From positions 11,327 to 75,326 of the forward strand of contig CAINNR010000015.1 in NCBI GenBank assembly GCA_903851235.1: DNA of 64,000 nucleotides, read 5' to 3'. The stretch is from an uncultured Candidatus Berkelbacteria bacterium (GTDB taxonomy: Bacteria > Patescibacteriota > UBA1384 > XYA2-FULL-43-10 > CAINNR01). The notes under the pieces were generated by a model, which saw only the letters and a list, made by a program, of their open reading frames with translations, was not told the DNA's origin and made no database searches. Shown piece by piece: positions 20,160-37,480 of this stretch (position 1 is the first letter of the stretch; the number at the start of each line of letters is the position of its first letter). The position numbers and the translations under genes are program-made.

Positions 20160-20175
20160 ATTGGATGATAAAAAT

Positions 20176-20313
20176 CTAGGCGACGGAAAGTAGTTTGCGA
20201 CCTTTTTTTCGTCGTCGGGCAATAACAGCAACACCATCGGCTGTTTTCATCCTGGTCAGAAAACCGTGGTTTTTATGTCGTCTTCGATTGTTCGGCTGAT
20301 AGGTTCTTTTCAT
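20176..20313 (-). CDS. rpmH: 50S ribosomal protein L34
   Basis: Minus-strand translation [45 protein letters not shown] (45 aa), below the ORF-track length cutoff; divergent from dnaA. Confidence 0.85.
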
Positions 20314-20434
20314 AACAATGAGATATTATCAAAAACGAAGATAAAAAGCAAGACTTTAATTTTAAAATAGCTATTCCAATGTTTGCAAATTGAAAAAAGA
20401 GAATTGAAAATTGTGGCCACCGCTTGCATAGCCT

Positions 20435-20443
20435 GTGGATAAC
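20435..20443. promoter_or_regulatory. DnaA box (TGTGGATAA) in rpmH-dnaA intergenic region
   Basis: Perfect match to the TTATCCACA consensus, 37 nt upstream of the dnaA start. Confidence 0.5.
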
Positions 20444-20479
20444 TTGCTATGTTTTGTGTAGATTAAATTTAAGGAAAAA

Positions 20480-21865: not shown

Positions 21866-22307
21866 TTATTCACATGGCTTTTTAAACTATTAGTCTTTAA
21901 ATATACAATAATCATAATAATAAGGGCTGTTGATAACTGGATAACAGTAAATTTAATCCCAAATAACTAGTGTCTGTGGTTGATAAACTGTTAATAAAAC
22001 GGTTAACAAAGCTGTTAATTACCCGGTAGGTTGTTAATAACTTTTAAAATAAATAGTTAAATTGATGGTAGTATAGTATAGACTGTGGATAACTACCAAA
22101 GTTATCAACAGGGCTGTTAATAACTCTGTGGATAACTACACTATTTGATTAGGGAATCAGTGGTAATTTATTGCAAAAGTTATCAACAAGATAATAAATT
22201 ATAGATTGTAAAATATTAAATTATAATAGCGGAAATAATTATTAACAAATCATTTAATCATTGCTATTTAATATTTTAACTTCATTATTTATCTAAAAAG
22301 GAGAATT
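21866..22307. promoter_or_regulatory. candidate oriC (dnaA-dnaN intergenic region with DnaA boxes and AT-rich unwinding element)
   Basis: Perfect TGTGGATAA at 22084-22092 and 22127-22135, one-mismatch boxes at 21928-21936, 22103-22111, 22180-22188, gggctgtt(g/a)ataac repeats, very AT-rich 22190-22300. Confidence 0.6.
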
Positions 22308-23414
22308 ATGAAAATATCATGCACGCAGGCAAAGCTAAATAAGGGTCTGTCAATCGTCTCAAGAATCGTCGGAACCAGGACAACATTACCGGTTTTATCA
22401 AATATATATTTGGAGGCCAAGGATGGCCAACTGAAACTATCGGCCACCGACCTTGAAATCGGTGTTACAACTTCAATCGGTGCCAAGGTTGACGAAGAAG
22501 GCTCATTAACGGTTCCGGCTCGGCTAATCTCAGATTTTATCGCTGCCAACTCAGATGAAAATCTGGAATTGGAGTCAAAAGCGACGACACTTCATCTTAA
22601 AAGCCAAAGGTACGAAGCGAATATAAAGGGAATCGACTCCTCTGAATATCCGGTTTTGCCCGAGGTGTCAAAGGACTCACTTGTTGAACTGGCGGTTGCT
22701 GACTTTACCGGAGCGATTTCCGAGGTTGTTGTCGCTTGCGCCACCGATGATACTCGCCCGGTTCTGGCCGGCATCTACTTTAAATTTGACACCGACACAC
22801 TATATCTTGTCGCCACCGACAGTTATCGTTTGGCGGAGAAAAAAATCGATGTTCCCGGCTTAAATATTAACAAGGAATTTATCGTCCCAGCCAGGACTAT
22901 GCAAGAGATTCTCCGTATATCATCTTCAGTTGAAAACCCGGAGAAGATTGCAATATCGGCGACTGAAAATCAGGTCTCTTTTAATATCGCCGGCACACAA
23001 GTGGTGTCAAGGCTGATCGAAGGCGCGTTTCCAAACTATAAACAAATAATTCCTTCAGCCTACAAATCATCGGCGGAAATCGATCTTCATGATTTTTCCT
23101 CCGCAATCAAAATGGCCTCACTTTTTGCCAGGCAGGGTGGAAACAACGTCAAAATTAAATTTATCGCTGCCGAAGCCATTATCACCAGTGTTGCCGACCA
23201 AGTTGGTGACAATATCTCCAAAGTACCGGCAAAATCGTCCGCCGATTCCGAGGAGATCACCTTCAATGCCAAATACATCGCTGATATTTTGCAAGTTTTG
23301 CCGGACAAAAAACTCCTATTTGAGGTCAATGACAAGTTTTCCGCCGGCGCAATCCGACCGGAAAAAGCTAAGGATTTTGTTTACATCATCATGCCACTTA
23401 GAGTGGAAGAGTAA
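22308..23414 (+). CDS. dnaN: DNA polymerase III beta sliding clamp
   Basis: 368 aa, three-domain clamp pattern, position after dnaA, AAAGGAG RBS. Confidence 0.9.
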   Translation: MKISCTQAKLNKGLSIVSRIVGTRTTLPVLSNIYLEAKDGQLKLSATDLEIGVTTSIGAKVDEEGSLTVPARLISDFIAANSDENLELESKATTLHLKSQRYEANIKGIDSSEYPVLPEVSKDSLVELAVADFTGAISEVVVACATDDTRPVLAGIYFKFDTDTLYLVATDSYRLAEKKIDVPGLNINKEFIVPARTMQEILRISSSVENPEKIAISATENQVSFNIAGTQVVSRLIEGAFPNYKQIIPSAYKSSAEIDLHDFSSAIKMASLFARQGGNNVKIKFIAAEAIITSVADQVGDNISKVPAKSSADSEEITFNAKYIADILQVLPDKKLLFEVNDKFSAGAIRPEKAKDFVYIIMPLRVEE

Positions 23415-23506
23415 CTTAATAAACAGGAGAGTTCAAATGTCAAACGAAGCTTATAATATAAAAATTTTAAATATTTGTCATTTGAATTTCATTCAGCATT
23501 CGATTT

Positions 23507-24550
23507 TTGAAATTTGAACTTATGCTTCATCATTTGACTCTCATCAACTATCGCAATCACTCAAAATTTGATCTCGATTTGTCCGAGATTACTGTTTTAG
23601 TCGGCAAAAATGGAATAGGCAAGACAAATATCTTGGAATCGATCGGCTTGCTTTCATCATGTCGATCTTTTCGCGGCGACAATCGGCTGGAGTTGATTAA
23701 ATTTGATAATGATTACACCAGGGTTGTCGCTGATGATCTGGAAATCTTTATTCAGCGAACACCGCGCTTGATTTTTCAGGTCAAAGACAGGGGAATCAAG
23801 CGCAAGGTCGCCGATTTTGTCGGCACTCTACCATCGGTGGTTTTTTCACCGGAGAGTTTGGCAATTATTACCGGCGAACCAAAGGAACGACGACGATTTT
23901 TGGATATCGTGATCTGTCAAAAGGATCACAAATATCTTCGTGGACTACAGGATTATAAAAAAGTCTTGTCTCAGCGAAACAATCTGCTTAAATTGATCTC
24001 CGACGGGCGAGCGAGTGCTGACCAACTCGATTTTTGGGACAAAGAATTGGTTGCGGCGGCAAAAATTATTACCGACGGCAGAGATCAAGCAATCAGCGAT
24101 TTTTCACAGCACTTAGTTCGGTTCTATCGAACAATTTCCGGCCAAAAAAAAGCCTCAATTGAAATTATTTATTTTGCCAAAGCCGGTGCTGATTTCGCGG
24201 CCAAATTAAAGACAAAAAGGGGAATTGATATCGCCGCCGGGCTGACAACATCGGGCCCGCACCGTGATGACCTGCAATTTATCTTAAATAATCTGGAAGC
24301 GGAAAAATATGCCTCGAGAGGGGAATTAAGAAGCATTGTTTTATCGCTGAAAATGGCCGAGCTGAAATATTTGGAACATGGTGTTAAACCGATACTGCTT
24401 TTAGATGACATTTTTTCTGAATTTGATGGCGATCACCGCCGACATTTGTACCAGTTGATTAAAAATTATCAAACCGTTCTGACTACTACCGACCGTGAAC
24501 ACTTGTCGCCCCTGCTCTTGACAAATGCCACTGTCGTAGAAGTGAAATAA
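23507..24550 (+). CDS. recF: DNA replication and repair protein RecF
   Basis: LTLINYRNH start, Walker A GKNGIGKTNILE, SMC-like signature and Walker B LLLDDIFSEFD. Confidence 0.9.
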   Translation: MKFELMLHHLTLINYRNHSKFDLDLSEITVLVGKNGIGKTNILESIGLLSSCRSFRGDNRLELIKFDNDYTRVVADDLEIFIQRTPRLIFQVKDRGIKRKVADFVGTLPSVVFSPESLAIITGEPKERRRFLDIVICQKDHKYLRGLQDYKKVLSQRNNLLKLISDGRASADQLDFWDKELVAAAKIITDGRDQAISDFSQHLVRFYRTISGQKKASIEIIYFAKAGADFAAKLKTKRGIDIAAGLTTSGPHRDDLQFILNNLEAEKYASRGELRSIVLSLKMAELKYLEHGVKPILLLDDIFSEFDGDHRRHLYQLIKNYQTVLTTTDREHLSPLLLTNATVVEVK

Positions 24551-24649
24551 TGGATTATGGCACTGGACAAAGAATTTTTTTTCTGCTATAATTAAATAAG
24601 CAACTTAACAAAGCCCCGCAGTGTAATATTGCGGGACAAAGGAGCGGAA

Positions 24650-24802
24650 ATGACTGAAAAAGAGCCAGAAGCTCAAGTTATTGCCGATGAGAGTAGGGTC
24701 AAGCGCAAGCCGGATCTTACGCTCGTTCAAGCAATTACAATGAGTGTTGTCGCCATTTTAGCAGTTGCGGTAGGCACCGTTTACGGAACCATCCTCTTTT
24801 AA
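24650..24802 (+). CDS. small membrane protein (50 aa), hypothetical
   Basis: AAAGGAGCGGAAATG RBS; MTEKEPEAQVIADESRVKRKPDLTLVQAITMSVVAILAVAVGTVYGTILF with one TM helix; TATAAT at 24587-24592 and a 6-bp-stem hairpin 24615-24635 in the leader; terminator follows. Confidence 0.35.
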   Translation: MTEKEPEAQVIADESRVKRKPDLTLVQAITMSVVAILAVAVGTVYGTILF

Positions 24803-24829
24803 AAAATATGGAGGGATAAGTTCTAAAAA

Positions 24830-24862
24830 ATCACCTGAGATTATATCAATGGTGATTTTTTG
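24830..24862 (+). terminator. rho-independent terminator
   Basis: atcacc-tgagattatatcaatg-ggtgat hairpin followed by TTTTTTG. Confidence 0.5.
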
Positions 24863-24887
24863 TTGCCCAAAGTGCTATTATCAGGAT

Positions 24888-25160
24888 ATGGACAGAATTG
24901 ACAAAATATTGATGCCGGTAATGGCCAAGAAGGGGCTCGGTGGGGCGGCGGTAGCGGCTCAGATTTGCTTTTATGCCTCTGAATATGGCAAAGGTAGTTT
25001 TGTTGCAACTTCGTTTTCTAAGGGCGTTCTAAAGCTTTCCTGTGCTGATTCAATTGACGCCGGCGAGGTGCAAATGATGAGTGAGGAAATAATTACTCAT
25101 GTTAATGAAAAAATCGGGAGAGAAATAGTTTCAAGGATAAGAATAGTGAACTCATCGTAG
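24888..25160 (+). CDS. hypothetical protein (90 aa)
   Basis: Start placed at MDRIDKIL after the terminator; Gly/Ala-rich small protein, no confident family assignment. Confidence 0.35.
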   Translation: MDRIDKILMPVMAKKGLGGAAVAAQICFYASEYGKGSFVATSFSKGVLKLSCADSIDAGEVQMMSEEIITHVNEKIGREIVSRIRIVNSS

Positions 25161-25219
25161 CTAAGTCTTCTCTAATCGAATAATGCGTCCAATGAAGCTT
25201 GTGTCTACTATCAAGCTAT

Positions 25220-25249
25220 TGACTTTTTAGTTCTCATATGCTATAATTG
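25220..25249 (+). promoter_or_regulatory. near-consensus sigma70 promoter for second high-GC ORF
   Basis: TTGACT (25220-25225), 18 nt spacer, TATAAT (25244-25249). Confidence 0.45.
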
Positions 25250-25314
25250 GGCGTTATGGTGAAGTTGCGCGAGGCAATCACCAAACAGTACGATTGAAAA
25301 GGACTGATCGAATA

Positions 25315-25914
25315 ATGAAAAAGACTTTGGTTGTTATACTGGTTCTTGCCGTACTGGCCGTTCCAGCGCTCGCGAAGGATCGCGGGCACAACGGAGGAGG
25401 GGACAAACGCGGCGGTGGAGAGCACCATGGACGTCCGGCGATCACGCTGGGCAGTGTCCTGGGCGCGGCAGCGGGTTTGTACCTGCTGTCGCGTATTGAT
25501 CGCTGCGTGCCGGAGTATATGCCGGCACCGTGCCTGCCTGTCTACCAGACGCCGGTGTACGGACCGGTGTTGCAGGATCCCGTTTGCCAGTTGCCGGGGT
25601 ACGGCGGTATTGGTCACACCGGTCGTTACGACGTGCCCTGCGTTGTCGAGTCGCAGGGCAACCGCATGATCGTCAACCGGCCCTATCGGCCGGGGACCCA
25701 GCTGACGGTGGAGGGCGAGTGGGTGACGGACCCGAACACTTTGCAGCCGCTGTATAGGAGGGAGCAGGGGTCGTTGGTTGTTGTTACATCCAACGGAGCC
25801 ACCTCTCTCTGCGACGTATTGCGTGGTGGCGCAAATCGCGGAGACGATATCATTGTCGTCGCCACCCCCTCTCCTGTGCCAGCACCGGCCACGGCACCGG
25901 TATATCAGCCGTAA
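25315..25914 (+). CDS. high-GC ORFan: secreted Cys-containing protein
   Basis: Roughly 60% GC. Signal peptide MKKTLVVILVLAVLAVPALA. Gly/His-rich segment, six Cys, Pro-rich C-terminus. Confidence 0.5.
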   Translation: MKKTLVVILVLAVLAVPALAKDRGHNGGGDKRGGGEHHGRPAITLGSVLGAAAGLYLLSRIDRCVPEYMPAPCLPVYQTPVYGPVLQDPVCQLPGYGGIGHTGRYDVPCVVESQGNRMIVNRPYRPGTQLTVEGEWVTDPNTLQPLYRREQGSLVVVTSNGATSLCDVLRGGANRGDDIIVVATPSPVPAPATAPVYQP

Positions 25915-25922
25915 GAACACAA

Positions 25923-25960
25923 GCGCTCCCCGACAGATCATGTCCGGGAGCGCTTTTTTC
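25923..25960 (+). terminator. rho-independent terminator
   Basis: gcgctccc-cgacagatcatgtcc-gggagcgc followed by TTTTTT. Confidence 0.65.
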
Positions 25961-26001
25961 ATTTCAATTAAACACACTAAGGTGTGGTATACATTGCTGT
26001 G

Positions 26002-29000
26002 TTAGAATCCGATATGGGTATAATTTGTTGTTTGCGGATTGACCCAGAGTCCGGCGCGGGAGCCACTGCAACCGCCGACTTTGGAACAGATAACATCATC
26101 CACCTTATATTGCCAGTAATCAACATCCTCTTGGCGGCCGGTCATAATTTGCGACGGAATCGCCAAGGCGTCGCCGGTTCGTTCCGATAATGCCAACACA
26201 TCACCGGCCAAAGTTTTCGCCTTGTACTGGGCGGCGGTAATATAGCCGGACTTTTTCGCCGTCGGATCCAAGCCATTAAAGGTGCCGAGATTCCCGTTGT
26301 CGGAAACAGAAGGATCGGGTTTGGCATCAACCCCGGGATAGTAACCGTCGGCGGTACAGGTGACCTCGGTCTTGTAAACACCGAATAAATTCATTAGGAC
26401 AAAGATTGCGACCGAAATCGGATTAAAGCCGGTGATAAGCATTGAAACCAACATCGAACCGGTGCCGGGAACCAAGCCGACAGCGGTTTCAAATTGGCCG
26501 ATCTGTTTTGAGAAAACCAAATTGACGACGAAAGCGATGCCGGCGGATTCAACATTTGACAGGTTCCCCTTGGCGTCAGCTAATTGTTTATTTGCTGTCA
26601 CGAGGTTTTTCGCTTCTGCAGCGCCCCCGGTTGCAGCATCTGCGGCACCGGCTACAGCCATATTGGCACTGGAGATAGCGGCGTTGGCGGCAACAATTTC
26701 TCGGTAGGTCGTATAAATAGTGAATGCTGTGCCCGATGGCAGACCGAGCGCTTTATCGGCCCAACCGGTGATCTTGCTGATGCCCCAATCTTTGTAAATA
26801 TTTTCCAGGCTTTTTATCGGCGTGCCGACTCCCGGGATGGTGATATCGGCGGTGAAATTGCCGTTTTTCAAGCCGTAAGCCAGGGCGGTGAAAGTTCCCG
26901 GTTGGAGCTGAAACCCGAGTAAATTGCCGAGTTTGCCATCGATCCAACTGTCAAGATTCGCCATTTTGCCGTTTTTGACCATTGTATCGAGATCAAAACC
27001 CTTTGGATTCTGGAAAAATGATGTCAGTGAGTTATACAGATCAATTCCAAGATCAAGCTTATTGTAACTGACACCGTTAAACGATAGAGTGCCGAGAGCA
27101 TTTTTTGCGTAACTCATCAACATTGCTGTTCGCTGGACACCGTTGCCGGAGTACATGGTTTTAACGAAGCCGGCGGGGATATTTTGATCAACTTGGTAAA
27201 GTTTGGCATCAGCCATTCGCCAGAGCAGATTGTTTTTTGTTACAGTGTCGGCCTGTTTTCGAGCCGCTTCCTGTACGCTGTTTAAATCCTCAATTGATTG
27301 AGAATTTTTTTGTACCGCCGCCATCATCGCCACCGGATCAACCGTCGGATTCGCCGGATAGTCTTGGGCAAAGCCGGTGCTTGCAGCATCGTAGGCAGCA
27401 TAAGTCGAATAACTCGAAGCTGTTGGGTTGGTCGGGTCATAACAAGTATTCCCCATTGCCGTTGATCCGGGGGCGCACTGACTGGCATATAAGGTTGTCG
27501 CCGGTGAACCGGCCATCTCTGCCGTCTCGGTTACCGACGCGATCGGGTTCGCTTTGTTCAAATTTGTCAGATAGTTGTTGGTTGCGCTGTCAACGTAAGA
27601 TTTTTCTAACGTCGGGTTACCCATGATCGAATAATAGATATCTTCATATGTAATGCGAAAATATGCCGGTAGATTGGCGGTGGTTGAACCGTTGTAAATG
27701 TGCAGGGCTTCCGCCGATTTAACCGCAGCCGTGATCTCCAAAACTCGCAAATCGCCATGAACCAACATGTTGGTGCTTTGCAAAATCAAGTCCTGTGTTT
27801 TCGGCATACCGGCGTAATTTCCACTGCCCGGACTTGGGGTGGCGATGATACCGATTTTCGACAGGTAATCGCCGACCAATTGCTCGCCGATCTGTTGCCC
27901 ATAATACTCCCAGCGGTCGGCACTAGAGCTTATTGATATGGCACCAAAATGACCGGTGGTCGGTATTGAGTCACTAGCGCGAAAAGTTGTCAGGCCGGTT
28001 TTCCAACCGTCGGAATATGGAAGAGGCCCACCGAGGCCGATGTAGGCGGCGGTAAATGAGGCGCCGGCGGTTGGATCAAGACCGAGTGAATTATCGAGTT
28101 TCTCAATACCGGAGAGCAACAACGATGCGGCAGCTTGCTCCGGATTGGTAATAATTCGGCCGATTGTGCCGGCGGAAAGCCCGAGTTTGCTGTCAAGATC
28201 AATGCCAAAAACTTGGGAGAAGTTATTAAAGATTGCGCCGTAATCACATGAAGTGGCGGCCGAAGTCCCAATTATTGTCTTGCTGCCGCAGGCTTTGATT
28301 CGCTGGAAGGTGTTTGTAAAACCATCAATCTTGCCCAGCGTTGCGGAATCGATTCCCAGTAGTTTGCCCCACGTATCGATGCCTGTCGGTGTTAAGCCGA
28401 TCACGGTGTTGGCGACATCGTGGCGGTAGTCGTCGGGAGTTATTTTTGAAGTCAGAAGTTGCTGAGTCGTTCCGGCCGGAAGTCCGAGCTGGGAGTCGAT
28501 GCCACTGACCTGATTTAAAAAGTTGGTCGTTTGATAGAGAGTAATACTTTGTGTCGGGTTTGAGGTGGAAAATGCGTCGGCTGAACTACCGTTAAAAGCT
28601 AAATTTAGTGTTGAAGTGATATTTTTTTCAAGCGCCGGATTCGTCAGGGCGATCGGGGCGATATTAGCGGTGCTGGCGGGATAGTTAACGTGACTTTCGG
28701 CCAGTTGATATTGGCTGGCGATTGATTGCTCGGCGATTGAAGCGGCCAACGATAAATTTGTAATCGCATCCGGGGTCAGAATTTCCGACGGTGGCAATTG
28801 GAATGCCCGAGCGAAGGCCACCGGGCCAATATTATCCATCAACTCCTGCAAGGTTGAGCCGCGGAAGGAGTTTGACGGCAAGTTGAGAACCTTCTCGATT
28901 TTCGCCCCACCGATATTTTCATAAATGTTTCCTGAGAGAGAAACAGTGCCGAGACCGAGCATACCGCCGACAAAATTGGCACCCAAATTCGCCAGCGAAC

Positions 29001-32000
29001 AGTTACGAATAATTGACGACGTTGATTGAATTATATTAATAACCTGATTCGAGCCGACTCCAAGTTGACTCTCGAGATATTTTGAGCCGATTTTATCAAC
29101 CGCTAGGGTGCCGTTTCCGGAGAGCAGATCGAAAATATCGCTAGCATCAATTTTCATTCCGGCAACGGTGACACCCATGCCGGCGAAGACTGCAGTCGTA
29201 ATTCGGCTTTCAGCCGTTCGCTTGCCGATTGTCTCCAAATACGGATTGATCGGTTTCTGACTCAAATTGGCGAGTAGATCTTTGCGGTTGAAAAGGTTTT
29301 GCAGCGTAGTGACGGGGATGTTTAATTTGTTGCTGATATTTGCTAGTTCATCACTTGAAAACGCCGCCGCTTTTGATGGAGTGGAGAGAAAACTGTTCAA
29401 CTCGCTCTGATAAGTTGCGGCTGTTGCGGCATCAAAAGAGTTTGGAACGGCCGGGTTGGAAGCCAAACCCTGGGACAAGGCTTTGACAAAGTCGACTTGC
29501 GAGCTCGCGTTGCTTTCGGCGTAACTTCTGGCTTCATTGATGCTCGGAAATGCGTGAGTGCCACTGGCGTCGGCATAAACATAGGAGTTATCGACTATCT
29601 GACTGCTGACAGAGAAAGTAATACCGTTTTGTTTTGTATAACTGAAACCGACCGGGCAACTGCCGGTAGTCGTCGGGCTGGCGATCTGCGAAGTGAAGCC
29701 GTTATGGGCGTTATATGTTATCAGGTTAGCGTAATTTTGATTCAAGCCATTAGTCAAACTTTGAGCGCTGGTTTTGACCCGAGTGAAAGTGTCGATGACA
29801 TTTTGGGGTAAATTTAATCGTCCGGCGATCAGCTCGGCGTCGGAGCTGCCCAAAGTATCGGTTGAAACTGACTGTCCGGAGAGAAATTTCAAACTTGTTC
29901 CGGCCGGTAGTGCCAATGAAGTATCTAGATTGCCGGCGGCCAGCGCCACCTGCGAACCGCTAGCGAATGAGCTGGCACCGGTGATTGAAGAAATATCAGC
30001 CGGCAAATTAAGCGCTCTCATAACTTGGGCCCCGGCTTCGGCCGAGGAGATGCCCCAAACCTTGCTTACATGATCGCGAACGTCGGAAAGTGTTGCCAGT
30101 GTGCCCGGAGTGCCACCCTGAAAGAAGTTTGGCGGCAGATGTAAGGTTTCCTCCAGTTGGGCTTGACCGATAGATTGGAAGAAGGCGTCTTGCCCATCAA
30201 TATTTGACGAGTCGGTTTTATTTTTAATAAAAGTGGCGTAATAGTAAATTGAATTTTTCGGCAGGTCGAGTGAACTTTCAATTTTGTTGGCACCGATCGA
30301 AATTAGAAAATTCTCCGGTGTCATCTTGCCGGCCAGCATCAGAGCTAAAGAGGCGGCTGAGATCTGGGTGCCGGAGCTGGCCGAGGTTGAATCGTTGGTA
30401 TTTTGAACGCCGATGCTGCCGAGATCGGAGAGTTGGAGCGATGAAATAGAGGATTGCGGTTTACCGGTCAAAATTTCCTCGACTGCCTGGGCAATATCGG
30501 CAAAATCAAGCGCGGTGGTGTTGGCTTTATCTTTTAAACTTTGGTTGGCGGCGACAGAGTTTTTCAGAGCGCCTGAGGCCTGGTCGAAATTAACCGCCGA
30601 GTTTCTAGTGACACTAATTGCTTGAATCCCGGATGATAGGCCATTGGTGTCAGCTTTTTCCACCTCTGATTTGGCACTAGCGATGTTGGTTTTGAAAATC
30701 CCGATATTGGCATCGCTGCTGGTAACACCGGCCCAATCACTTTGAATTTTTGCTGTTTTTGTCTGAATCAACTGGATTCTGGTTTTGTAAAAATCGACAG
30801 TTTTCAGAGCTGAGGTAATCTCCGGGTGCTGGGCCAAATAAGAGGCTTCAGCTTGTTTTACCGCCGAAGAATTTGCGATTCCGTTGTAGAGCGCGGTCTG
30901 GCCAAGACTTTTCAGCACCGGTTGCGGATTGACATTCGAGCAGCCGAATAGGCGGAAAAAATCACCACGTGAAAGACCGTAAGTTGTCATGAATTGACTT
31001 TCCGGCAAAGTCACGACTTTCGTCGTTGTCGTTCCGGCGATGGTGATGGTTACTGTTGCCACTGATGGAACGGCGCAATCGCTACTGGTAAGTTTGTTAT
31101 TAAACCACTGTACTAATGCGGCCCGAACATCACTGTCGCCATTGAAAGCTTGGGCCAAGGTGTCGGCGCCGATCTGTTGAAAGTTCGATGCCAAGTTTGT
31201 GCCGGCCAAAATGTCGGTCATTCGGGCGTTGGCGCTGGCGGTGGTGATACTGTTTGATGTACTATCGACTGATAGTCTGGCGGCATTGGCGGCGGCGGTT
31301 GATGAGGCGAAAGAGTAAACACTATCAGCCAAAATCTTGTTGGCAACCAGCGTCGCATAGGCATCCGGTGGTAGAGCGCCGGATTTGTACTGAGCGGAGT
31401 AATTATTTAACCCCAGTCCAAGTTTTTCATCAACACTGGTCGGATTTTGATAAACCAAATCAATTTTTCGCTGACCGGCGACGGTTTCAAGTTTTTTAAA
31501 ATTAGTATCGGTGCCGAACGCTCCTGCCGGCAAAGCCAAATCATTTTCAATCGTTCGCCGTCCAATTACCAACCTCAAACTCGTCGGATCAGTGATTGAA
31601 GATGACAGCGTGTTGGTCGGCAGATTGAGCGCCGACTCGACATGGCGTTCGCCGGTATTAATCAAAATTTCATTCAAATTATTGCCCTGAATTGAGCCCC
31701 AAGGCAGATTTAACTTCTTCTCCAGTTGGGCTTCGCCGATTTTGGCTTCCAAGTCATTTACGTCGGCCAAATTGGCATTGATAAAAGCTTGCCGCGGTAA
31801 ATTCAAATCATCGGCCAGCGCCATGCCGCCGATTTTTTTGATTGTGTCGGCAAAGTCCGTGCCGGAAATCGCCATATTCGGAGAATTTAACATTTCGCCG
31901 ATCAGCGATTTTCCGATTAAACCGACGATGTCGGAGAAGCCGGCTTTCGATAAATCGGTCGTCGAATCAACGGATATTCCCAACTGATCGAGTAAATCGA

Positions 32001-33246
32001 TGTAATTTCCACTTGCCAGTTGTCGAAGATTGGCATTTAGGCTGGAATAGTCTGGTGGTGGCGAGGTATCATAGCCGGAGGAGGTTTGCCAGGCAAGACT
32101 TATTGGTGTCGCCGGTAATTTTGTTTTATCATCAGAGCCGATTCGTTTCTTCTTTATCAGTGTGCACTTAATATTGTCTACGGCGGAAATGTCAACCGCT
32201 TCACCCTTATAATGAGCGGAGAGATTACTGGCGGTTTCGGCGTCGGAGAAAACCAAATCGCCCTGACTGGCTCCGGCGGAATCGATAACCTCGGCTTGTC
32301 CGGTCGCTGAAGCGATTGTTGGATCGGCGCTGAGAGCATTCTTATCTGCGCTGGAGACATCGCTAACTGTGGTCAGCGAGGATTTACTTGAGCTGGTGTT
32401 CTGAGCGATCTGTTGATAAATTGCCGTTGATTCTCTTGAAGTTTGTTTGGCATCGCGGTTGTAACCGTTACGAATTCGCAAAACCTTGATCAATTCGTGA
32501 CCGGCGCCACCTTGATCCTTTGGTGTAACCAGATTAACCAAAAGTTCCAGAACACGGCGATCAATTACAACTTTATTTTGGGCGTTATCAATTATCGCAT
32601 TGACTGAAGTTTGGTCGTATTTCAGCATGTCGGCGGCTTGATTTTGATCGACACCGGCGATGCAGGCGAAATTCGGCAGATCATTTTTCAGATTCGAAAC
32701 GATGTTGGTTCGCGCAGTATTCTGGGCCGTGGTTATCAAATTTTGGTAGCCGGTCGGGTCGGCGGTTTTCATTGTTGCAATATCAGCAATCGTTTTACCG
32801 CTCGCCGCTGCCAGTGAATCATCATGATTGGCAAAGTCAGGAATAACATTTCCTAAACAGGATAATGTTCGAATATCCTGCAAATCCGAGGGGTTGAAAA
32901 CCAGTTTAGGTGAGGAGGAAATGTTTTCTGTCGCCCAGAGAAACCCACCGATGCCACCATTTTCGCCCTCCAGGTAGTTGTTGCTGGTAAATTGCATTAG
33001 TGACTTAACCGATGCTGGCAAATTATCATTGATCGTTGGTACATTTATTCCAACATCAATCCCACCAACTTGGTCACCTTCACTATCAATTGCTTCTATC
33101 GGGTTTTGGTCTTGATTATCATTGGACACGGCGGGAGAATCAACCGGATCGGCGTGAGCACTTTGAATATACACAATTAAATTCAGCGGCAAAATAATCG
33201 CCAAAATGTTGAAGATGACTAAACTTTTTTTCAGAAAAGGTTTCAT
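26002..33246 (-). CDS. giant (2414 aa) secreted, C-terminally membrane-anchored surface protein with degenerate xLxLP repeats
   Basis: Signal peptide MKPFLKKSLVIFNILAIILPLNLIVYIQSAHA; about 15 instances of (L/A)(N/G/A/H/D)LP(x)(N/G/S) repeats (DLNLPRQ, KLNLPWG, ALNLPTN, SLALPAG, RLNLPQN, VLNLPSN, LGLPAGT, ALGLPSG ...); hydrophobic segment near C-terminus; start overlaps the M23 gene stop by 1 nt. Confidence 0.7.
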   Translation of the reverse strand: MKPFLKKSLVIFNILAIILPLNLIVYIQSAHADPVDSPAVSNDNQDQNPIEAIDSEGDQVGGIDVGINVPTINDNLPASVKSLMQFTSNNYLEGENGGIGGFLWATENISSSPKLVFNPSDLQDIRTLSCLGNVIPDFANHDDSLAAASGKTIADIATMKTADPTGYQNLITTAQNTARTNIVSNLKNDLPNFACIAGVDQNQAADMLKYDQTSVNAIIDNAQNKVVIDRRVLELLVNLVTPKDQGGAGHELIKVLRIRNGYNRDAKQTSRESTAIYQQIAQNTSSSKSSLTTVSDVSSADKNALSADPTIASATGQAEVIDSAGASQGDLVFSDAETASNLSAHYKGEAVDISAVDNIKCTLIKKKRIGSDDKTKLPATPISLAWQTSSGYDTSPPPDYSSLNANLRQLASGNYIDLLDQLGISVDSTTDLSKAGFSDIVGLIGKSLIGEMLNSPNMAISGTDFADTIKKIGGMALADDLNLPRQAFINANLADVNDLEAKIGEAQLEKKLNLPWGSIQGNNLNEILINTGERHVESALNLPTNTLSSSITDPTSLRLVIGRRTIENDLALPAGAFGTDTNFKKLETVAGQRKIDLVYQNPTSVDEKLGLGLNNYSAQYKSGALPPDAYATLVANKILADSVYSFASSTAAANAARLSVDSTSNSITTASANARMTDILAGTNLASNFQQIGADTLAQAFNGDSDVRAALVQWFNNKLTSSDCAVPSVATVTITIAGTTTTKVVTLPESQFMTTYGLSRGDFFRLFGCSNVNPQPVLKSLGQTALYNGIANSSAVKQAEASYLAQHPEITSALKTVDFYKTRIQLIQTKTAKIQSDWAGVTSSDANIGIFKTNIASAKSEVEKADTNGLSSGIQAISVTRNSAVNFDQASGALKNSVAANQSLKDKANTTALDFADIAQAVEEILTGKPQSSISSLQLSDLGSIGVQNTNDSTSASSGTQISAASLALMLAGKMTPENFLISIGANKIESSLDLPKNSIYYYATFIKNKTDSSNIDGQDAFFQSIGQAQLEETLHLPPNFFQGGTPGTLATLSDVRDHVSKVWGISSAEAGAQVMRALNLPADISSITGASSFASGSQVALAAGNLDTSLALPAGTSLKFLSGQSVSTDTLGSSDAELIAGRLNLPQNVIDTFTRVKTSAQSLTNGLNQNYANLITYNAHNGFTSQIASPTTTGSCPVGFSYTKQNGITFSVSSQIVDNSYVYADASGTHAFPSINEARSYAESNASSQVDFVKALSQGLASNPAVPNSFDAATAATYQSELNSFLSTPSKAAAFSSDELANISNKLNIPVTTLQNLFNRKDLLANLSQKPINPYLETIGKRTAESRITTAVFAGMGVTVAGMKIDASDIFDLLSGNGTLAVDKIGSKYLESQLGVGSNQVINIIQSTSSIIRNCSLANLGANFVGGMLGLGTVSLSGNIYENIGGAKIEKVLNLPSNSFRGSTLQELMDNIGPVAFARAFQLPPSEILTPDAITNLSLAASIAEQSIASQYQLAESHVNYPASTANIAPIALTNPALEKNITSTLNLAFNGSSADAFSTSNPTQSITLYQTTNFLNQVSGIDSQLGLPAGTTQQLLTSKITPDDYRHDVANTVIGLTPTGIDTWGKLLGIDSATLGKIDGFTNTFQRIKACGSKTIIGTSAATSCDYGAIFNNFSQVFGIDLDSKLGLSAGTIGRIITNPEQAAASLLLSGIEKLDNSLGLDPTAGASFTAAYIGLGGPLPYSDGWKTGLTTFRASDSIPTTGHFGAISISSSADRWEYYGQQIGEQLVGDYLSKIGIIATPSPGSGNYAGMPKTQDLILQSTNMLVHGDLRVLEITAAVKSAEALHIYNGSTTANLPAYFRITYEDIYYSIMGNPTLEKSYVDSATNNYLTNLNKANPIASVTETAEMAGSPATTLYASQCAPGSTAMGNTCYDPTNPTASSYSTYAAYDAASTGFAQDYPANPTVDPVAMMAAVQKNSQSIEDLNSVQEAARKQADTVTKNNLLWRMADAKLYQVDQNIPAGFVKTMYSGNGVQRTAMLMSYAKNALGTLSFNGVSYNKLDLGIDLYNSLTSFFQNPKGFDLDTMVKNGKMANLDSWIDGKLGNLLGFQLQPGTFTALAYGLKNGNFTADITIPGVGTPIKSLENIYKDWGISKITGWADKALGLPSGTAFTIYTTYREIVAANAAISSANMAVAGAADAATGGAAEAKNLVTANKQLADAKGNLSNVESAGIAFVVNLVFSKQIGQFETAVGLVPGTGSMLVSMLITGFNPISVAIFVLMNLFGVYKTEVTCTADGYYPGVDAKPDPSVSDNGNLGTFNGLDPTAKKSGYITAAQYKAKTLAGDVLALSERTGDALAIPSQIMTGRQEDVDYWQYKVDDVICSKVGGCSGSRAGLWVNPQTTNYTHIGF

Positions 33247-33248: not shown

Positions 33249-34673
33249 TTACGGAGTTTTATTTAAAACGCTCAAATCACGGACGTATAAATACTCGCCG
33301 ATAACATTGTATTTTTTATTACTGCTGTGAAAATTGGCTACGTCTTCGGCGGTTGTGGTAACGGCGTGATTATCACAAAGAAGTTCGAAGTGAAGGTGAG
33401 GGTGATTCAGACCGGTCCAACTTGCGCCAATTTTTTGACCGACGGTTACATCGTCACTGCTGGTTACACTTTGCATATGGGCGTACACCGCTCTAAAGGT
33501 TTTACCGACGCTGTCTTTGCCTTCAATATATATGTAGTCGCCGGAGTGGTTCCCGCGCTTTGTAATATGACCGGAGAAGGCGGCGTAAACCGGTGTGCCA
33601 CCCGAATCGCCAATATCAGTGGCGTCATTGGTGCATTTGTTATTGTTGATGAATGTGCCATGTCCGGGAACCGATTCGCATCTCATAAACGATCCACCAT
33701 GCAATGTGCTGTTAAATCCCTTTACATCTTTTGGACTGATTGGATAGGCGGTTTCTCCGCTGAAGTGAAAAGGAACCGTGGCGAAGATATCCAAAAGTTG
33801 CCCGACGGCGGTGACGATTTTCAGGCCGGCGGCATTTTCTTTCGCATCGCCTTGCGGCAGCGTTTGAAAAGCTTTGACTAGTCCGACAATTTCATCAATC
33901 TTTGCTGAAATTTTTGCTTTGGTTGTAGAGTCATAGTTGCTTAGAGGCGGCGAATTCAGATCATTTTTCATTGCCGCCAAGTCACCTTGCAATCCGGAGA
34001 GGACATCGGCTGTTAATGACTTGGTGACATCGCTGTTTCCGCTCAATGCCAAAATTTTGGAAATCCATGGGCGATCATGCAAGATATCGGTGGCTTCTAC
34101 TGGGCTTGAACCGTTGACGTTCGGTGTTTGGAGGGCGCGAATAAGGAAAACCAGTGCGACGACAATGATAACTATTCCGACGATGGCGAGCAAAATCGGT
34201 AACCAATATCCGGCCGTTGTGGCGGCGATTTTAGTTCCGATTTGAGCCGCCCATTTTGTTGCTGATCCAACGGCTTTTTTCACCGCATCGCCAGCGACAT
34301 CGGCTAGCGGTTTTGCGGCGCGTTTAGTCGCTGTTTTTTTCTCATCTTCGGCTTGTTCTTTGGCTTTTTCTTGCGCCGTTTCGCGCGGCTGTACCGCCGG
34401 ACCACCGGGTTGAGCCTCCTTGACCGCTGCTGGCGTAAAAACATCATCCGATTTAAATTCCGGCACCTCGGCTTGCTGAATTTGCTCCTCAGGCGTGCCC
34501 GATTTTACCTTTGCTGTTTCATTTGCATTATCATCGGTTTTCGGTTGATGAGCATCTTCGATTTCTTCTTCATCAATATCAAAATCGGCCGAAGTTTCCG
34601 TCGGAACATTAATTTGAGCCCGTTTAATATCGTCGGCGACCCTCCGTTTGTACTGATCTGGCGACTCAGCCAC
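33249..34673 (-). CDS. membrane-anchored M23 (LytM-type) metallopeptidase
   Basis: Acidic disordered cytoplasmic N-terminus, one TM, C-terminal HxxxD (HGGSFMRCESVPGHGTFINNNKCTND), DIGDSGGTPVYAAFSG and HLHFEL motifs. Confidence 0.7.
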   Translation of the reverse strand: MAESPDQYKRRVADDIKRAQINVPTETSADFDIDEEEIEDAHQPKTDDNANETAKVKSGTPEEQIQQAEVPEFKSDDVFTPAAVKEAQPGGPAVQPRETAQEKAKEQAEDEKKTATKRAAKPLADVAGDAVKKAVGSATKWAAQIGTKIAATTAGYWLPILLAIVGIVIIVVALVFLIRALQTPNVNGSSPVEATDILHDRPWISKILALSGNSDVTKSLTADVLSGLQGDLAAMKNDLNSPPLSNYDSTTKAKISAKIDEIVGLVKAFQTLPQGDAKENAAGLKIVTAVGQLLDIFATVPFHFSGETAYPISPKDVKGFNSTLHGGSFMRCESVPGHGTFINNNKCTNDATDIGDSGGTPVYAAFSGHITKRGNHSGDYIYIEGKDSVGKTFRAVYAHMQSVTSSDDVTVGQKIGASWTGLNHPHLHFELLCDNHAVTTTAEDVANFHSSNKKYNVIGEYLYVRDLSVLNKTP

Positions 34674-34723: not shown

Positions 34724-36049
34724 CTAATTTGAAATTAATTTAACAAAATACAATTTTCCGGCCGAAGTGAAAACCGCTCCAGATTTGTCATCACTCAAAG
34801 AAACTTCGCTGACCGTTGAATTGCCTTGACCGGCAAAGTAAAAATCGGAAGTTTTCCCATCAATTAAACCTACAACTATCATTTTACTCTCCGCGGAATC
34901 GATTGGCAAGAAAATTTGATCCGGATTTTTCCATAATTTGACATCCGAAGCGCGAGCGGCGATTCCCAAATCACGATTATTACTGCCATCTGAGTTTATT
35001 ACCGAAAGAGTTTGTCTCAGCGGATTTTGCGGATTGTTGGAAAATGTCGAGTAAATAATTTTTTTGCTGTCAGAGCTAAAAACCGCTTCTTTTTGGTTGC
35101 CGGCTGTGTTTAGTGGCGTGACTACTTTGGTATAGACATCCATCAGATAAATTTTGTTTTGATTGAAATCAGCGTTTCTTGGAATAATCAGCAGATATTG
35201 TGAATCGGGTGAAAAGGCGAGGTAGGGGTTCTCGATGTTAAGCTCGGCCAAATTTGCCGCTCGGTAAATGTTTTGATTACTGGCATCGGAAAAAATCAGT
35301 GATCGCTCACCACCGGGCGGGGCGTAATAATAGGCGAGGCGCGAACCATCGGGGGCCCAAACTATGTCGCCGACATTGTTACTGAAAAGCGTCTCGCTTT
35401 GATTGATAAAATCGTACTTTTTGAAATCCAATAAATTAACTGTTGTGCCGGTTTTTACCAAAATCAAATTTTTGTCCGGCGACCAGATTATCTTTGATTT
35501 CGGGTCGATCGGTGTCGAGGTGATTTGCTGGTTAGTAGCAACTGTCGCACCGCCGGAATTATCAATATCCAGAGTTGATAAATAGAATAAATTATTGCTA
35601 AGGCTCTGATAAAAAACCTTGTTATCGGAAATCGCGATGTGAGCGGCTGAGTCAGCGATTTTATTCGGCTCCGGCGCTTTGACTAAATCAATTTTTTTTG
35701 AATAATTTTGTCCGCGTGATAATGTGATTTCCTCTTTGAAGCCGACGTAATTATCGGCGTCGACGCGCAAAGTGTGTTTACCCAAACCGGTGACGAAACT
35801 GGCCGAGCCGTTCAACAGCTGGGCCGGTGAATTGTCCAGTGTGACGATGGCGTTTGTCGGTGCGACTTCAACCGAGACTTTGGCGTGGATGAAAAAGAGA
35901 AAATAAATCAGCGCAGCAAGGAAAATAAAAAATCCGATCAAAACCATCCGGAATATTAGAGTTTGTTGTTTTTGTTTTATCTTTCCCATAATATTTACTT
36001 CGGGCATCCGGGAGTTGTATCTGCTGGTAATAATTTGAAATCTGGCCAA
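34724..36049 (-). CDS. membrane-anchored PEGA-domain plus TolB-like (PD40/WD40-like) beta-propeller protein
   Basis: N-terminal TM; PEGA-like VEVAPTNAIVTLDNSPAQLLNG..GKHTLRVDADNYVGF; repeated SPD/APDG blades (IIWSPDKN, IVWAPDGS, LAFSPDSQ, VFSSDSKK). True start probably a downstream Met (complement 36007 or 35989), since the listed start overlaps the upstream gene. Confidence 0.5.
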   Translation of the reverse strand: MARFQIITSRYNSRMPEVNIMGKIKQKQQTLIFRMVLIGFFIFLAALIYFLFFIHAKVSVEVAPTNAIVTLDNSPAQLLNGSASFVTGLGKHTLRVDADNYVGFKEEITLSRGQNYSKKIDLVKAPEPNKIADSAAHIAISDNKVFYQSLSNNLFYLSTLDIDNSGGATVATNQQITSTPIDPKSKIIWSPDKNLILVKTGTTVNLLDFKKYDFINQSETLFSNNVGDIVWAPDGSRLAYYYAPPGGERSLIFSDASNQNIYRAANLAELNIENPYLAFSPDSQYLLIIPRNADFNQNKIYLMDVYTKVVTPLNTAGNQKEAVFSSDSKKIIYSTFSNNPQNPLRQTLSVINSDGSNNRDLGIAARASDVKLWKNPDQIFLPIDSAESKMIVVGLIDGKTSDFYFAGQGNSTVSEVSLSDDKSGAVFTSAGKLYFVKLISN

Positions 36050-37413
36050 GATATCTGACTGGTATCATAATTTCCACCGTATTGGAAGTGCATTGTGTCG
36101 CAAGTGCAGAAAAATTTTCCACCCCAAAAGAAACCGTCTTTTTGGAAAATATCACTAACAGTTTTTGGTATATTAGTCGAGCAGCTAGAACTATCCCTTG
36201 CTTGACCGCCGGAGATTGAACTTCGTTTATTGTTTGGGTTTTGGTTAGGGTTTATATCAATTGCTGTCCCGAATCCATGTGGGCTGATTGTGCCTTTGCG
36301 ATTGGTATTTTCTCTAACACTAGTTCCTTGAACGTCGCTAAAATTGTAAGTTACACCAGCGGCTTTCAAATCGGCCTGAACTTTATCAAGCGCCGAGGTT
36401 ATTGCTTTGTTGACTCCACCGGAGATGTTGTGACCCATGAACGAGTAAGAAACAATATTTTTTCCCGGGGTGCCGACGGCATTCTGAACATCTGTAATAT
36501 TTTTCCAAATTCCAACTTGGTCATATTGCCCCAAACTGGTTCCGACGGTACGAAAATCCATTGAGGAGTTGGAGCCGGAGGTGGCACCACAATTATCAGA
36601 CCCTCCGGTTGCACCGGAACCGGCGGCTGTAGTAAATCGCCATCTCGTTTTTGCGTCGCTCTCGGCGCCCAAACTTGTCATTGCGATTTGCGATATGTCA
36701 AGACCAACCCTATTAGCCGGTCGTGCATTATTCAAGACATATCCCGAGTCAGTATAGACATATGGTCCGGAGTCGATGACTGCCAGCACCACAGTTTTCC
36801 CGTTATATTCAACTTCAATTCTTGGGCACTGGTTAACATTTCCATGGCAGGCGACTGGTATGCTTGTTAGGGGAAGCGCAGCAAAGTATTCGGTCGGTCG
36901 ACTACAGCCGGTTGGAAGACCGCTTCTGCCGACGCAGTTGTCGACATCATCGGTGCATGTCATACACTCCTCCATGTCTTTAGCTGATGATAATGCCGTT
37001 GAGTCTTTATGGCACCATTTATACTTCATATCTCGGTTATGTTGGGATTTATCACATTTGCCGCCAAAGGTTGTTGTCACTATGTTTTCATGCCAATCGG
37101 TTGTAGCGCCAGCGGGAATTGCAACTGTTCCGGACAAACCACTGTTCATGCAAGCTTGGGCGCTGTTGCCATTTGGATCGCCGATTGAGCGAACGTAAAA
37201 AGCGATTGCAGAACCCCAAGCGGCGGCTGCCGACAGACCCATAAAAAGAACAACAAGAATCGAGACGATTATTGCTTTTCGCCACTTATTCTTATCACCA
37301 CCTATGGTGAAAAAGTTTTTGACTTTATCAATTGGGTTCGAGGATTGGCCACCAGTGGTGGCATTTGGCGTTTCGTTTTGTTCTGTTGTTTCATCAGGCA
37401 TAAAATTTACCAA
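35995..37413 (-). CDS. bifunctional cell-wall hydrolase: RlpA-like DPBB domain + M15 (LAS-family) peptidase domain
   Basis: TM anchor; PTEYFAALP...CPRIEVEYNGKTVVLAVIDSGPYV...GLDISQIAMTSLG matches the RlpA/DPBB core (V.V.N..NGKSVVVRVNDRGP); C-terminal HGFGTAIDIN and WGGKFFCTCDTMHFQY match M15 peptidase metal-binding motifs. Confidence 0.6.
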   Translation of the reverse strand: MVNFMPDETTEQNETPNATTGGQSSNPIDKVKNFFTIGGDKNKWRKAIIVSILVVLFMGLSAAAAWGSAIAFYVRSIGDPNGNSAQACMNSGLSGTVAIPAGATTDWHENIVTTTFGGKCDKSQHNRDMKYKWCHKDSTALSSAKDMEECMTCTDDVDNCVGRSGLPTGCSRPTEYFAALPLTSIPVACHGNVNQCPRIEVEYNGKTVVLAVIDSGPYVYTDSGYVLNNARPANRVGLDISQIAMTSLGAESDAKTRWRFTTAAGSGATGGSDNCGATSGSNSSMDFRTVGTSLGQYDQVGIWKNITDVQNAVGTPGKNIVSYSFMGHNISGGVNKAITSALDKVQADLKAAGVTYNFSDVQGTSVRENTNRKGTISPHGFGTAIDINPNQNPNNKRSSISGGQARDSSSCSTNIPKTVSDIFQKDGFFWGGKFFCTCDTMHFQYGGNYDTSQISWPDFKLLPADTTPGCPK

Positions 37414-37480
37414 TTACTTTCAATCAAAATATAAAATATATATGATAGATTTCTGATAATCTCGAAATGATTTTGAAAAA

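Follow-up and report, generated by a model that had tools for sequence, protein, structure and literature searches.

The 64,000-nucleotide stretch of an uncultured Candidatus Berkelbacteria bacterium analyzed here (contig CAINNR010000015.1, positions 11,327 to 75,326; in the following called the window) contains on its minus strand a gene for a protein of 2414 amino acids, located in one operon with type IV secretion system (T4SS) genes. The question raised by this locus is what such a giant protein contributes to the cell envelope or to the secretion system. The analysis suggests, with moderate confidence, that it is an exported envelope protein with a wall-remodelling or scaffold role and a lineage-specific accessory of the chromosomal, origin-proximal, mating pair formation FATA (MPF-FATA)-like T4SS of Berkelbacteria-type Patescibacteria. 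The giant family is without annotation in databases and, in this clade, is lineage-specific.

Synteny and export of the giant protein

The minus strand of the window encodes, in this order, PrgI (VirB3-like), a TrsD-like VirB4 N-terminal gene, a VirB4 P-loop gene, two CarboxypepD_reg-like proteins, a membrane-anchored M15_4 peptidase, a PEGA/beta-propeller protein, a membrane-anchored M23 protein and the giant protein. The genes dnaA, dnaN, recF and dciA are located on the plus strand, convergent to this operon (window 20480-25160). The listing of open reading frames (ORFs) and the translation gave a single uninterrupted frame of 2414 codons followed by a TAA stop, which agrees with an earlier reading made from the letters of the window (the sequence-only reading). 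A 14-bp GC-rich hairpin, preceded by an A-run and followed by a T-rich run, lies 47 nt 3' of the stop codon, and its fold energy is -36.6 kcal/mol compared with -21.7 kcal/mol for shuffled sequences (z = -4.97). Judged from its sequence, the hairpin is likely a bidirectional terminator, common to the giant gene and the convergent plus-strand gene. Because this terminator-like hairpin is located directly downstream, the giant gene is the last of the minus-strand operon, as the sequence-only reading had also stated.

To place this arrangement among relatives, 27 GTDB species-level loci were recovered with the C-terminal profile, plus the loci of the homologues P0026, P0041, P0101 and P0108. The relatives used for context comprise about 30 loci with proteins of 1.4-3.2 thousand amino acids (kaa), all from Berkelbacteria/Patescibacteria; their lengths vary across lineages and both ends are kept. 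No relative in this set bears a name or has a Pfam hit. Nearly all of the 27 species-level loci have the order PEGA - M23 (or C39_2, NlpC/P60) - giant, convergent to dciA-recF-dnaN-dnaA, and the same order was found at a 29%-identical relative and at a 3138-aa relative. With few exceptions among the relatives examined (loci L001-L031), the operon borders on the dnaA-dnaN-recF-dciA block, at 25-60% protein identity. At the locus of P0108 (1494 aa) the order is PrgI - VirB4 - NlpC/P60 - P0108 - Amidase_2 ... recF-dnaN-dnaA, and P0101 (1890 aa) has YkuD and recF-dnaN-dnaA as its neighbours. In the window and in three of the relative loci, PrgI and VirB4 themselves can be seen, and there the giant gene belongs to the same strand block as these two genes. 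The origin-proximal placement of Patescibacteria T4SSs has been described before (PMC12102498); here it is extended to a gene-for-gene convergent synteny that includes the giant gene.

A total of 43 homologues of 2350-3140 aa were identified, all of them hypothetical proteins of Patescibacteria/Berkelbacteria. A hidden Markov model (HMM) search with the N-proximal domain of the giant protein retrieved 185 representative proteins, and among the best 150 of these the complete ones are all large (about 1000-3240 aa), the few shorter ones look like fragments, and every full-length carrier has the beginning of the domain among its first ~500 residues. Named carriers are hypothetical proteins of Berkelbacteria or Patescibacteria, and many superfamily members contain a compact domain of ~105 aa that is free of the insert described below. 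No match to the giant protein was found in phage (tblastn, 50,697 records) or plasmid collections.

The N-terminus consists of two lysines (KK), a 20-residue hydrophobic core and the sequence SAHA followed by D. The same n-h-c layout is present in 24 aligned homologues, so that the signal peptide noticed in the sequence-only reading could be confirmed as Sec-type; cleavage is inferred between SAHA and D. The strict synteny in relatives together with this export signal supports the earlier suggestion of a T4SS-associated surface structure.

For the other end of the protein, a hydrophobic C-terminal anchor had been proposed. The hydrophobic segment is indeed there, but it is not C-terminal: two or three helices are located at residues ~2231-2292 and, because 122 more residues follow, the supposed anchor is better described as an internal hairpin plus tail. 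The region comprises an amphipathic or transmembrane (TM) helix, AGIAFVVNLVFSKQIGQF, and after it a tight helical hairpin, LVPGTGSMLVSMLITGF-NP-ISVAIFVLMNLFGVY. LVPG and NLFGVY are invariant in it (LVPGTG...NP...NLFGVY), and it is helical in the AlphaFold2 (AF2) model. In the tail, CTADGYYP is followed by IPSQIMTGRQEDVDYW, by C-x5-C and by the terminal NPQTTxYTHIGF-COOH. The protein ends with HIGF, HVGF or HIGY in 27/28 giant ORFs of loci L001-L029 and with HLGY in the remaining one (1/28), and a C-terminal profile search matched the tail only in the giant family, including its fragments. The superfamily C-termini are aromatic throughout, with THIGF in the close family and, among distant members, GGLY, GGFF, IFAF and IVTW. 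The pattern is reminiscent of C-terminal signatures for sorting or assembly, which is puzzling in a monoderm.

LAS-like domain, helical body and LxLP motif

In a 25-sequence alignment of the family, the most conserved stretches are residues 200-400 and 2241-2414. Along the first of them follow one another IDRRVLxLLVNLVTPKD, GGAGH250, RIRxGY262, RES272, a variable insert (~280-335), NLSAH345YKGEAVD352IS and LAW386Q387T. Here the exact motif S343-x-H345-x-x-G348-x-A350-x-D352 is found, preceded by a strand ending in G-Y. SxHxxGxAxD is the signature of the VanY/M15 (LAS) peptidases, in which its His and Asp bind zinc, and the LAS fold class includes VanY/M15 D-Ala-D-Ala or L-Ala-D-Glu peptidases as well as Hedgehog. 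H345 and D352, which we take to correspond to the zinc-ligand His and Asp of LAS proteins, do not vary among the 25 sequences of the family or the 30 of the superfamily, and the residues that are invariant superfamily-wide are D229, H345, D352 and Q387. The bona fide M15_4 protein encoded nearby has SPHGFGTAID and, later, DTMH. The sequence-only reading had seen no known catalytic motif, which is wrong in view of the family-invariant SxHxxGxAxD at residues 343-352.

The whole giant protein had no match to Pfam at E<=1, and NCBIfam and PHROGs gave nothing usable. When 17 family members were scanned individually against Pfam, VanY was matched in 3/17 (best E 0.0074). In a second scan, 30 compact domains were searched one by one; the most frequently matched families were VanY (9/30, best E 0.006), DUF5715 (6/30, best E 0.003), Peptidase_M15_4 (6/30, best E 0.054) and Extensin-like_C (4/30, best E 0.023), followed by Peptidase_M15_2 (best E 0.041), Peptidase_M15_3 (best E 0.06) and HH_signal (best E 0.065) with 1/30 each. 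All seven families presumably belong in or close to one Hedgehog/DD-peptidase clan. A PDB profile search resulted in 19 weak matches, and in 17 of these a Hedgehog N-domain is aligned exactly on the motif. When the PDB was searched by sequence and by profile with residues 105-470, residues 222-400 or the full-length alignment, nothing but noise or coiled-coil matches came up. Aligned to the neighbouring M15_4 protein with hhalign (2-sequence profile), the domain gave P = 7e-4 and a probability of 26% over 75 columns, and in a search of the window ORFs with the domain HMM the M15 gene was second-best (E 0.025). As these individually non-significant scores agree on a single fold class, which chance would hardly produce, residues ~225-395 are quite probably of LAS ancestry.

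Like the LAS proteins (VanY/M15/Hedgehog, Pfam clan Peptidase_MD), the domain has the SxHxxGxAxD motif, a preceding strand G-Y-x-R and an upstream helix. It differs from LAS enzymes in that the third zinc ligand and ExxH/DxxH are absent, a variable insert of 50-60 residues is present, scores stay sub-threshold and the domain is embedded in a giant protein. With LAWQ in place of the canonical third zinc His, and with D229, H345, D352 and Q387 invariant, the domain may be either an enzyme whose site has been altered or a module that binds the wall without catalysis.

AF2 models were obtained for residues 105-470 and 1215-2414. The latter part was predicted as almost all-alpha, with a mean predicted local distance difference test (pLDDT) score of 67.6 and 605 residues at >=70. 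Foldseek identified no structural neighbour in the PDB for this model, nor for the helical bundle at residues ~115-222. With the full-length profile, only coiled-coil and helical-bundle chains were matched in the PDB, at positions ~795-930 and with weak, noise-type E values of 0.02-0.8. Structure prediction of segments, proposed in the sequence-only reading as a check, thus produced models for the helical parts (115-222 and 1215-2414) and was unreliable for the LAS-like part. Conserved and variable segments alternate along the protein.

The recurring L-x-L-P motif described in the sequence-only reading is real. L[NGASDH]LP occurs 12 times, whereas 2000 shuffles of the protein contain it 0.35 times on average and never more than 4 times. 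When flank enrichment was scored at positions that had not been used in picking the 12 sites, Gly was found at -8 in 7/12 (p = 1e-5), an aliphatic residue at -4 in 11/12 (p = 8e-7), an acidic residue at -3 in 9/12 (p = 5e-8) and N/G/S/T at +5 in 10/12. A repeat HMM iterated over 25 homologues converges on SIGGAKIEEALGLPAGSFQGA, and the ~22-aa repeat unit has the consensus SIGGAKIEEALGLPAGSF. With this HMM, 12 clear and 3 weak copies were detected, far above the shuffled background of 0.005 per sequence, and the earlier estimate of about 15 units is therefore confirmed. Four clear copies are located at residues 467-587, five at 979-1161 and single ones at 1440, 1573 and 2153; the weak copies lie near residues 1385, 1684 and 1711. 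In the unit at 1440-1471, I1450, E1451 and L1454 are invariant and the model shows helix, LP loop and helix (pLDDT 83-88). The degenerate units at 1683-1723 are positionally kept in the family consensus.

The statement that the protein is built from these repeats could not be upheld. The units, arranged as two clusters and scattered singles, add up to 426 aa, which is 17.6% of the protein, and form minor helix-turn connectors. In the AF2 model of residues 1215-2414 each copy runs from the end of one helix through a GLPxG(T/S) loop into the beginning of the following helix, with pLDDT 83-88 for the best copies; in the model, the motif is a recurrent helix-turn-helix connector of an all-alpha protein and not a domain-sized block. 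The copies are at conserved positions in orthologues down to 25% identity, and no DNA-level tandem repeat was found in the giant gene. For these two reasons the copies are old and under selection rather than the result of a recent expansion.

Gene junctions and operon neighbours

The coordinates of the giant gene, its segments and its neighbours are given in Table 1. Ala, Ser, Leu, Thr, Gly and Asn are abundant in the protein, which has an acidic to neutral charge. Its gene is the most GC-rich stretch of the window (0.49-0.50); G+C is 0.35-0.38 at window positions 4001-6000, 12001-18000, 20001-22000 and 62001-64000, and 0.44-0.50 elsewhere.

Table 1. Features of the giant gene and of its surroundings in the window (residue numbers refer to the giant protein unless another protein is named).
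Feature	Window coordinates	Strand	Basis or remark
Hairpin, 14-bp, GC-rich, A-run/T-rich flanks	25921-25955	.	sequence and fold energy
Giant ORF	26002-33246	-	2414 aa + TAA at 26002-26004; translation
C-terminal tail, residues 2293-2414, Cys-containing alpha/beta	26005-26370	-	conservation 0.65-0.84, most conserved part
Hydrophobic region, residues ~2231-2292	26371-26556	-	hydropathy; conservation; model helices
Last repeat unit, residues 2153-2184 (WADKALGLPSGT)	26695-26790	-	HMM; D2164, G2172 invariant
Two degenerate units, residues 1683-1723 (SKLGLSAGT, NSLGLDP)	28078-28200	-	weak HMM matches, i-E 0.015-0.25
Single unit, residues 1573-1604 (SQLGLPAGT)	28435-28530	-	HMM; model
Best-conserved single unit, residues 1440-1471 (NIGGAKIEKVLNLPSNSFRG)	28834-28929	-	HMM; model
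Repeat cluster 2, residues 979-1161, five units (SLDLP, TLHLP, ALNLP, SLALP, RLNLP)	29764-30312	-	motif count and HMM
Long-helix coiled-coil-like stretch, residues ~800-930	30457-30849	-	weak PDB profile matches
Repeat cluster 1, residues 467-587, four tandem ~30-aa units (DLNLP, KLNLP, ALNLP, DLALP)	31486-31848	-	motif count and HMM
Divergent LAS (VanY/M15/Hedgehog-like) domain, residues ~225-395	32062-32574	-	conservation; sub-threshold profile matches
SxHxxGxAxD motif, SAHYKGEAVD, residues 343-352	32191-32220	-	direct reading of sequence
Helical bundle, residues ~115-222	32581-32904	-	AF2 pLDDT 82-90 (model residues 20-120); precedes LAS-like domain
Acidic low-complexity linker, residues 33-105	32932-33150	-	poor conservation, column values 0.28-0.38
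Sec-type signal peptide, residues 1-32 (MKPFLKKS-LVIFNILAIILPLNLIVYI-QSAHA/D)	33151-33246	-	hydropathy peak 2.58 at residues 3-31
M23 (LytM-type) membrane-anchored protein	33249-34673	-	PF01551 E 2e-13; TM residues 160-178 of the M23 protein
Operon core, PEGA/beta-propeller to PrgI	34724-44349	-	Pfam and NCBIfam; same order in relatives
VirB4 P-loop part, 715 aa	40822-42969	-	split VirB4
TraC/TrsD-like VirB4 N-part, 262 aa	42981-43769	-	adjacent to P-loop gene
763-aa polytopic protein	46656-48947	-	>=6 hydrophobic segments in first 275 residues; ~490-residue hydrophilic C-part

The M23 gene ends with ...AAA ACT CCG TAA, followed by TT and the ATG of the giant gene. The overlapping stop and start codons assumed in the sequence-only reading are not present; the 2-nt spacer is, as a sequence feature, compatible with coupled translation. 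At residues ~385-392 the M23 protein has T-N-D-A-T-D-I instead of the LytM-type H-x-x-x-D, and retains YAHM and HPHLHFE. As read from the sequence, its first zinc His apparently has changed to Asn, and the protein may be a LytM factor of a degenerate (regulatory) kind; its weak NCBIfam matches include the amidase activators ActS and NlpD. In the L001 and P0041 loci a Peptidase_C39_2 protein replaces M23 directly upstream of the giant gene (with a 29-nt overlap in L001), and this protein could serve to process the giant protein proteolytically. In the same two loci, small four-helix-bundle genes (23S_rRNA_IVP, PF05635) are interspersed in the T4SS operon.

VirB4 is split in the L001 and P0041 loci as well, and a fused 874-aa VirB4 is encoded in the P0108 genome. 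The split fits the TrsD+VirB4 pair that has been described for Patescibacteria (PMC12102498). Identity of the giant protein with VirB6/PrgH/TcpH was considered and rejected: at least 5 TM helices would be needed, and the hydrophobic segments are limited to the leader and one region (2231-2292, 2-3 helices), which is too few for VirB6. The 763-aa polytopic protein, for which no Pfam or NCBIfam match was found, fits an "extended VirB6"-type channel subunit by its architecture and would be a better VirB6 candidate than the giant protein. Its 617-aa, 409-aa and 147-aa neighbours are likewise unannotated.

Beyond the giant gene, the minus-strand ORF 25234-25977 (247 aa) was tried as the next operon gene and discarded as probably spurious, since it encodes an Arg-rich, nonsense-like protein and shares sequence with the terminator hairpin. 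More probably, the gene at this place is the convergent plus-strand ORF 25294-25914 (206 aa). A near-consensus promoter-like site, TTGACT-17-TATAAT with TG, is located before it at 25219-25247, the ORF ends 6 nt short of the shared hairpin, and relatives have a convergent gene for 272-292 aa at its place. A family search with its product gave no match. Elsewhere, the window holds a tyrosine recombinase (53004-53942), a GH1 glycosidase (10810-12060) and a tRNA-Ser(CGA) (16682-16772).

Possible roles of the giant protein

In the proposed mechanism, the giant protein would be translocated by Sec and tethered to the producer's own membrane by the C-terminal hairpin. A long helical body, stiffened by the helix-GLPxG(T/S)-helix connectors, would span the wall or project from it, and the LAS-like domain would be placed at the distal end, where it might bind or cut peptidoglycan stem peptides. 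Together with the neighbouring M23 and M15 proteins, the giant protein might open or organise the wall (its own or that of a host) around the T4SS. Such a role could be likened to that of the VirB1/PrgK/CwlT-type hydrolases in Gram-positive conjugation systems.

Several observations speak against this accessory role. Co-location with T4SS genes is no proof of physical association and, as the operon lies beside the replication origin, the position of the gene could reflect expression level. Within the LAS-like domain, H250 is invariant in the close family only and is not kept in the wider superfamily, and the third zinc His and the catalytic acid (ExxH/DxxH/HxH) are absent: no conserved His follows D352, and LAW386Q387T is found instead. 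All LAS-family matches are below the curated gathering thresholds (best single E 0.003-0.007). AF2 predicted the LAS-like part with pLDDT <50, Foldseek against the PDB was without a match for the 105-470 model, and the AF2 coverage of the giant protein is 105-470 and 1215-2414 only. The hydrophobic region may form two or three membrane spans, which would place the tail outside or inside.

Known systems offer partial parallels. Patescibacteria T4SSs are MPF-FATA-like, with a TrsD+VirB4 pair, a location near dnaA, scarce VirB1/VirB8 homologues and no adhesin, and the giant family is not mentioned in that study (PMC12102498). In the one species tested the T4SS is essential for epibiotic growth, and its function has been called "completely unknown" (PMC11665869). 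The T4SS cluster of S. epibionticum is essential (PMC10633639). There, SEML1_0007 (1113 aa, next to VirB4), whose sole recognisable part is a Hedgehog/DD-peptidase-fold domain, was classed as essential, being growth-defective at the first sampled time point of transposon sequencing (PMC10633639 supplementary tables). By analogy, SEML1_0007 would be the closest functional precedent for the giant protein. Like the giant protein, it is a large unannotated protein with a LAS-fold module, encoded in an origin-proximal T4SS cluster of Southlakia epibionticum (Saccharibacteria) with VirB4, PEGA and hydrolases; in contrast to the giant protein, its domain is C-terminal (951-1105) and not N-proximal and it has half the size, the two being compared by description only.

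The VirB1-type hydrolases of Gram-positive T4SSs (PrgK of pCF10, TraG of pIP501, CwlT of ICEBs1 and TcpG of pCW3) are likewise encoded in a VirB4/PrgI (MPF-FATA-like) operon. They are also exported and membrane-tethered with a peptidoglycan-hydrolase-type domain, and larger than diderm VirB1 (PMC12102498). However, they combine a lytic transglycosylase or muramidase with CHAP/NlpC-P60 in a few hundred to ~900 aa and carry an N-terminal anchor, whereas the giant protein has 2414 aa, a LAS-type domain and its anchor towards the C-terminus. Against Pfam and NCBIfam, the giant protein matched no transglycosylase, muramidase, CHAP or NlpC/P60 family and no VirB1-type hydrolase. The giant proteins of Vampirococcus lugosii and Omnitrophota resemble it as very large, exported, membrane-associated proteins of reduced-genome episymbionts with a proposed role at the host interface. 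Unlike it, they have recognisable adhesion or carbohydrate-active domains or many TM helices and are not tied to a T4SS, and no homology to them was detected.

An unlikely alternative, which takes up the host-attachment adhesin suggested in the sequence-only reading, is a fibre for host attachment, in which the helical body would be the tether or adhesin, the LAS-like head a non-catalytic binder of host stem peptides, and the link to the T4SS one of co-expression. The export leader and membrane-tether segment of a giant protein fit this idea, as do the alternation of conserved with variable, probably exposed, segments and the loss of the canonical third His, which is expected for a binding-only pseudo-enzyme. 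Giant membrane proteins from candidate phyla radiation (CPR) bacteria are generally read as attachment factors (PMC8080830), and the adhesin role would be vacant because no PrgB-type adhesin is found in Patescibacteria T4SS loci (PMC12102498). On the other hand, evidence specific to an adhesin was not found: the protein matches no adhesin family in Pfam or NCBIfam, LP.TG (the LPxTG pattern) occurs nowhere in it, beta-rich Ig-like repeats are missing and the modelled half is all-alpha. Giant adhesins of the Bap, RTX or Ig-repeat type consist mostly of tandem similar domains, and here connectors of ~22 aa account for the small fraction of the length given above. The most conserved part is the membrane-proximal C-terminus and not the distal head, and the invariance of D229, H345, D352 and Q387 suggests a maintained metal or active site.

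It is improbable that the giant protein is a conduit or stalk of the T4SS that acts like a tape measure, extending to the host, inserting in its membrane and forming or guiding a channel. In phage tape-measure proteins such as T5 Pb2, a hydrophobic hairpin and a wall-hydrolase module accompany a long alpha-helical body, and the all-alpha body, hydrophobic hairpin and hydrolase-like domain of the giant protein recall this plan. The length variation of 1.4-3.2 kaa with both ends kept would also fit. An outer core complex is missing from monoderm T4SSs, and what spans the envelope in the Patescibacteria system has yet to be identified (PMC12857230), which leaves room for such a conduit. However, the PHROGs search gave noise only, and the absence of phage and plasmid matches disfavours an origin as a tape measure or mobile element; the gene is surrounded by chromosomal housekeeping genes and genes of the T4SS. 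The cleavable Sec leader and the C-terminal stop-transfer hairpin would imply anchoring in the producer's own membrane, and a tape-measure hydrolase is usually C-proximal.

An equally improbable reading is that of a general envelope or wall-maturation protein, S-layer-like or a wall scaffold, that is unrelated to secretion and happens to be encoded in a highly expressed origin-proximal operon. The neighbours are mostly wall enzymes (M23, M15, NlpC/P60, Amidase_2, YkuD, C39_2), the P0101 locus has no T4SS gene in the ~2 kb of contig upstream, and origin proximity has been proposed to act via gene dosage (PMC12102498). Against it, the strand block of the giant gene includes PrgI and VirB4 wherever upstream sequence suffices, and the giant family does not occur outside lineages that have an operon of this type.

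Finally, an extracellular DNA-binding scaffold, in which the helix-turn-helix units would act like helix-hairpin-helix (HhH) motifs and hand DNA to an uptake T4SS, is very improbable and was dropped: a DNA-uptake role of the Patescibacteria T4SS has been speculated on (PMC11665869) and three family members have faint HHH_5 matches (best E 0.082), but these do not rise above noise and fall within residues 105-470 rather than on the repeat clusters as a whole, the motif spacing (IG-x-A vs GIG-xxx-A) is unlike HhH, and the protein has an acidic to neutral character with a high content of Ser, Thr and Ala.

The preferred reading, an exported wall-remodelling or scaffold accessory of the T4SS, continues a known theme, either that of a wall-hydrolase-type accessory of monoderm T4SSs or that of a giant CPR envelope protein; the giant family itself is unannotated. 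This family of ~7 kb genes is fixed at the operon end across a CPR lineage whose genomes are typically under ~1 Mb. Because it combines an unannotated family, a position at the operon end and the remains of a wall-peptidase fold, the giant protein is a concrete candidate for the wall or host-surface part of the T4SS. It offers a defined domain (~105-400) and four invariant residues (D229, H345, D352 and Q387) that can be tested biochemically. A bolder and rather doubtful version would make it the missing envelope-spanning, host-contacting element of the T4SS: a Sec-delivered helical stalk, rooted in the translocon by the C-terminal hairpin and tail, with a re-wired LAS tip (an H-D plus D/Q site) for cutting or gripping the peptidoglycan of the host. 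If this is true, the stalk could be up to tens of nanometres long and would, in monoderm episymbionts, replace the VirB1 hydrolase and the adhesin/core complex.

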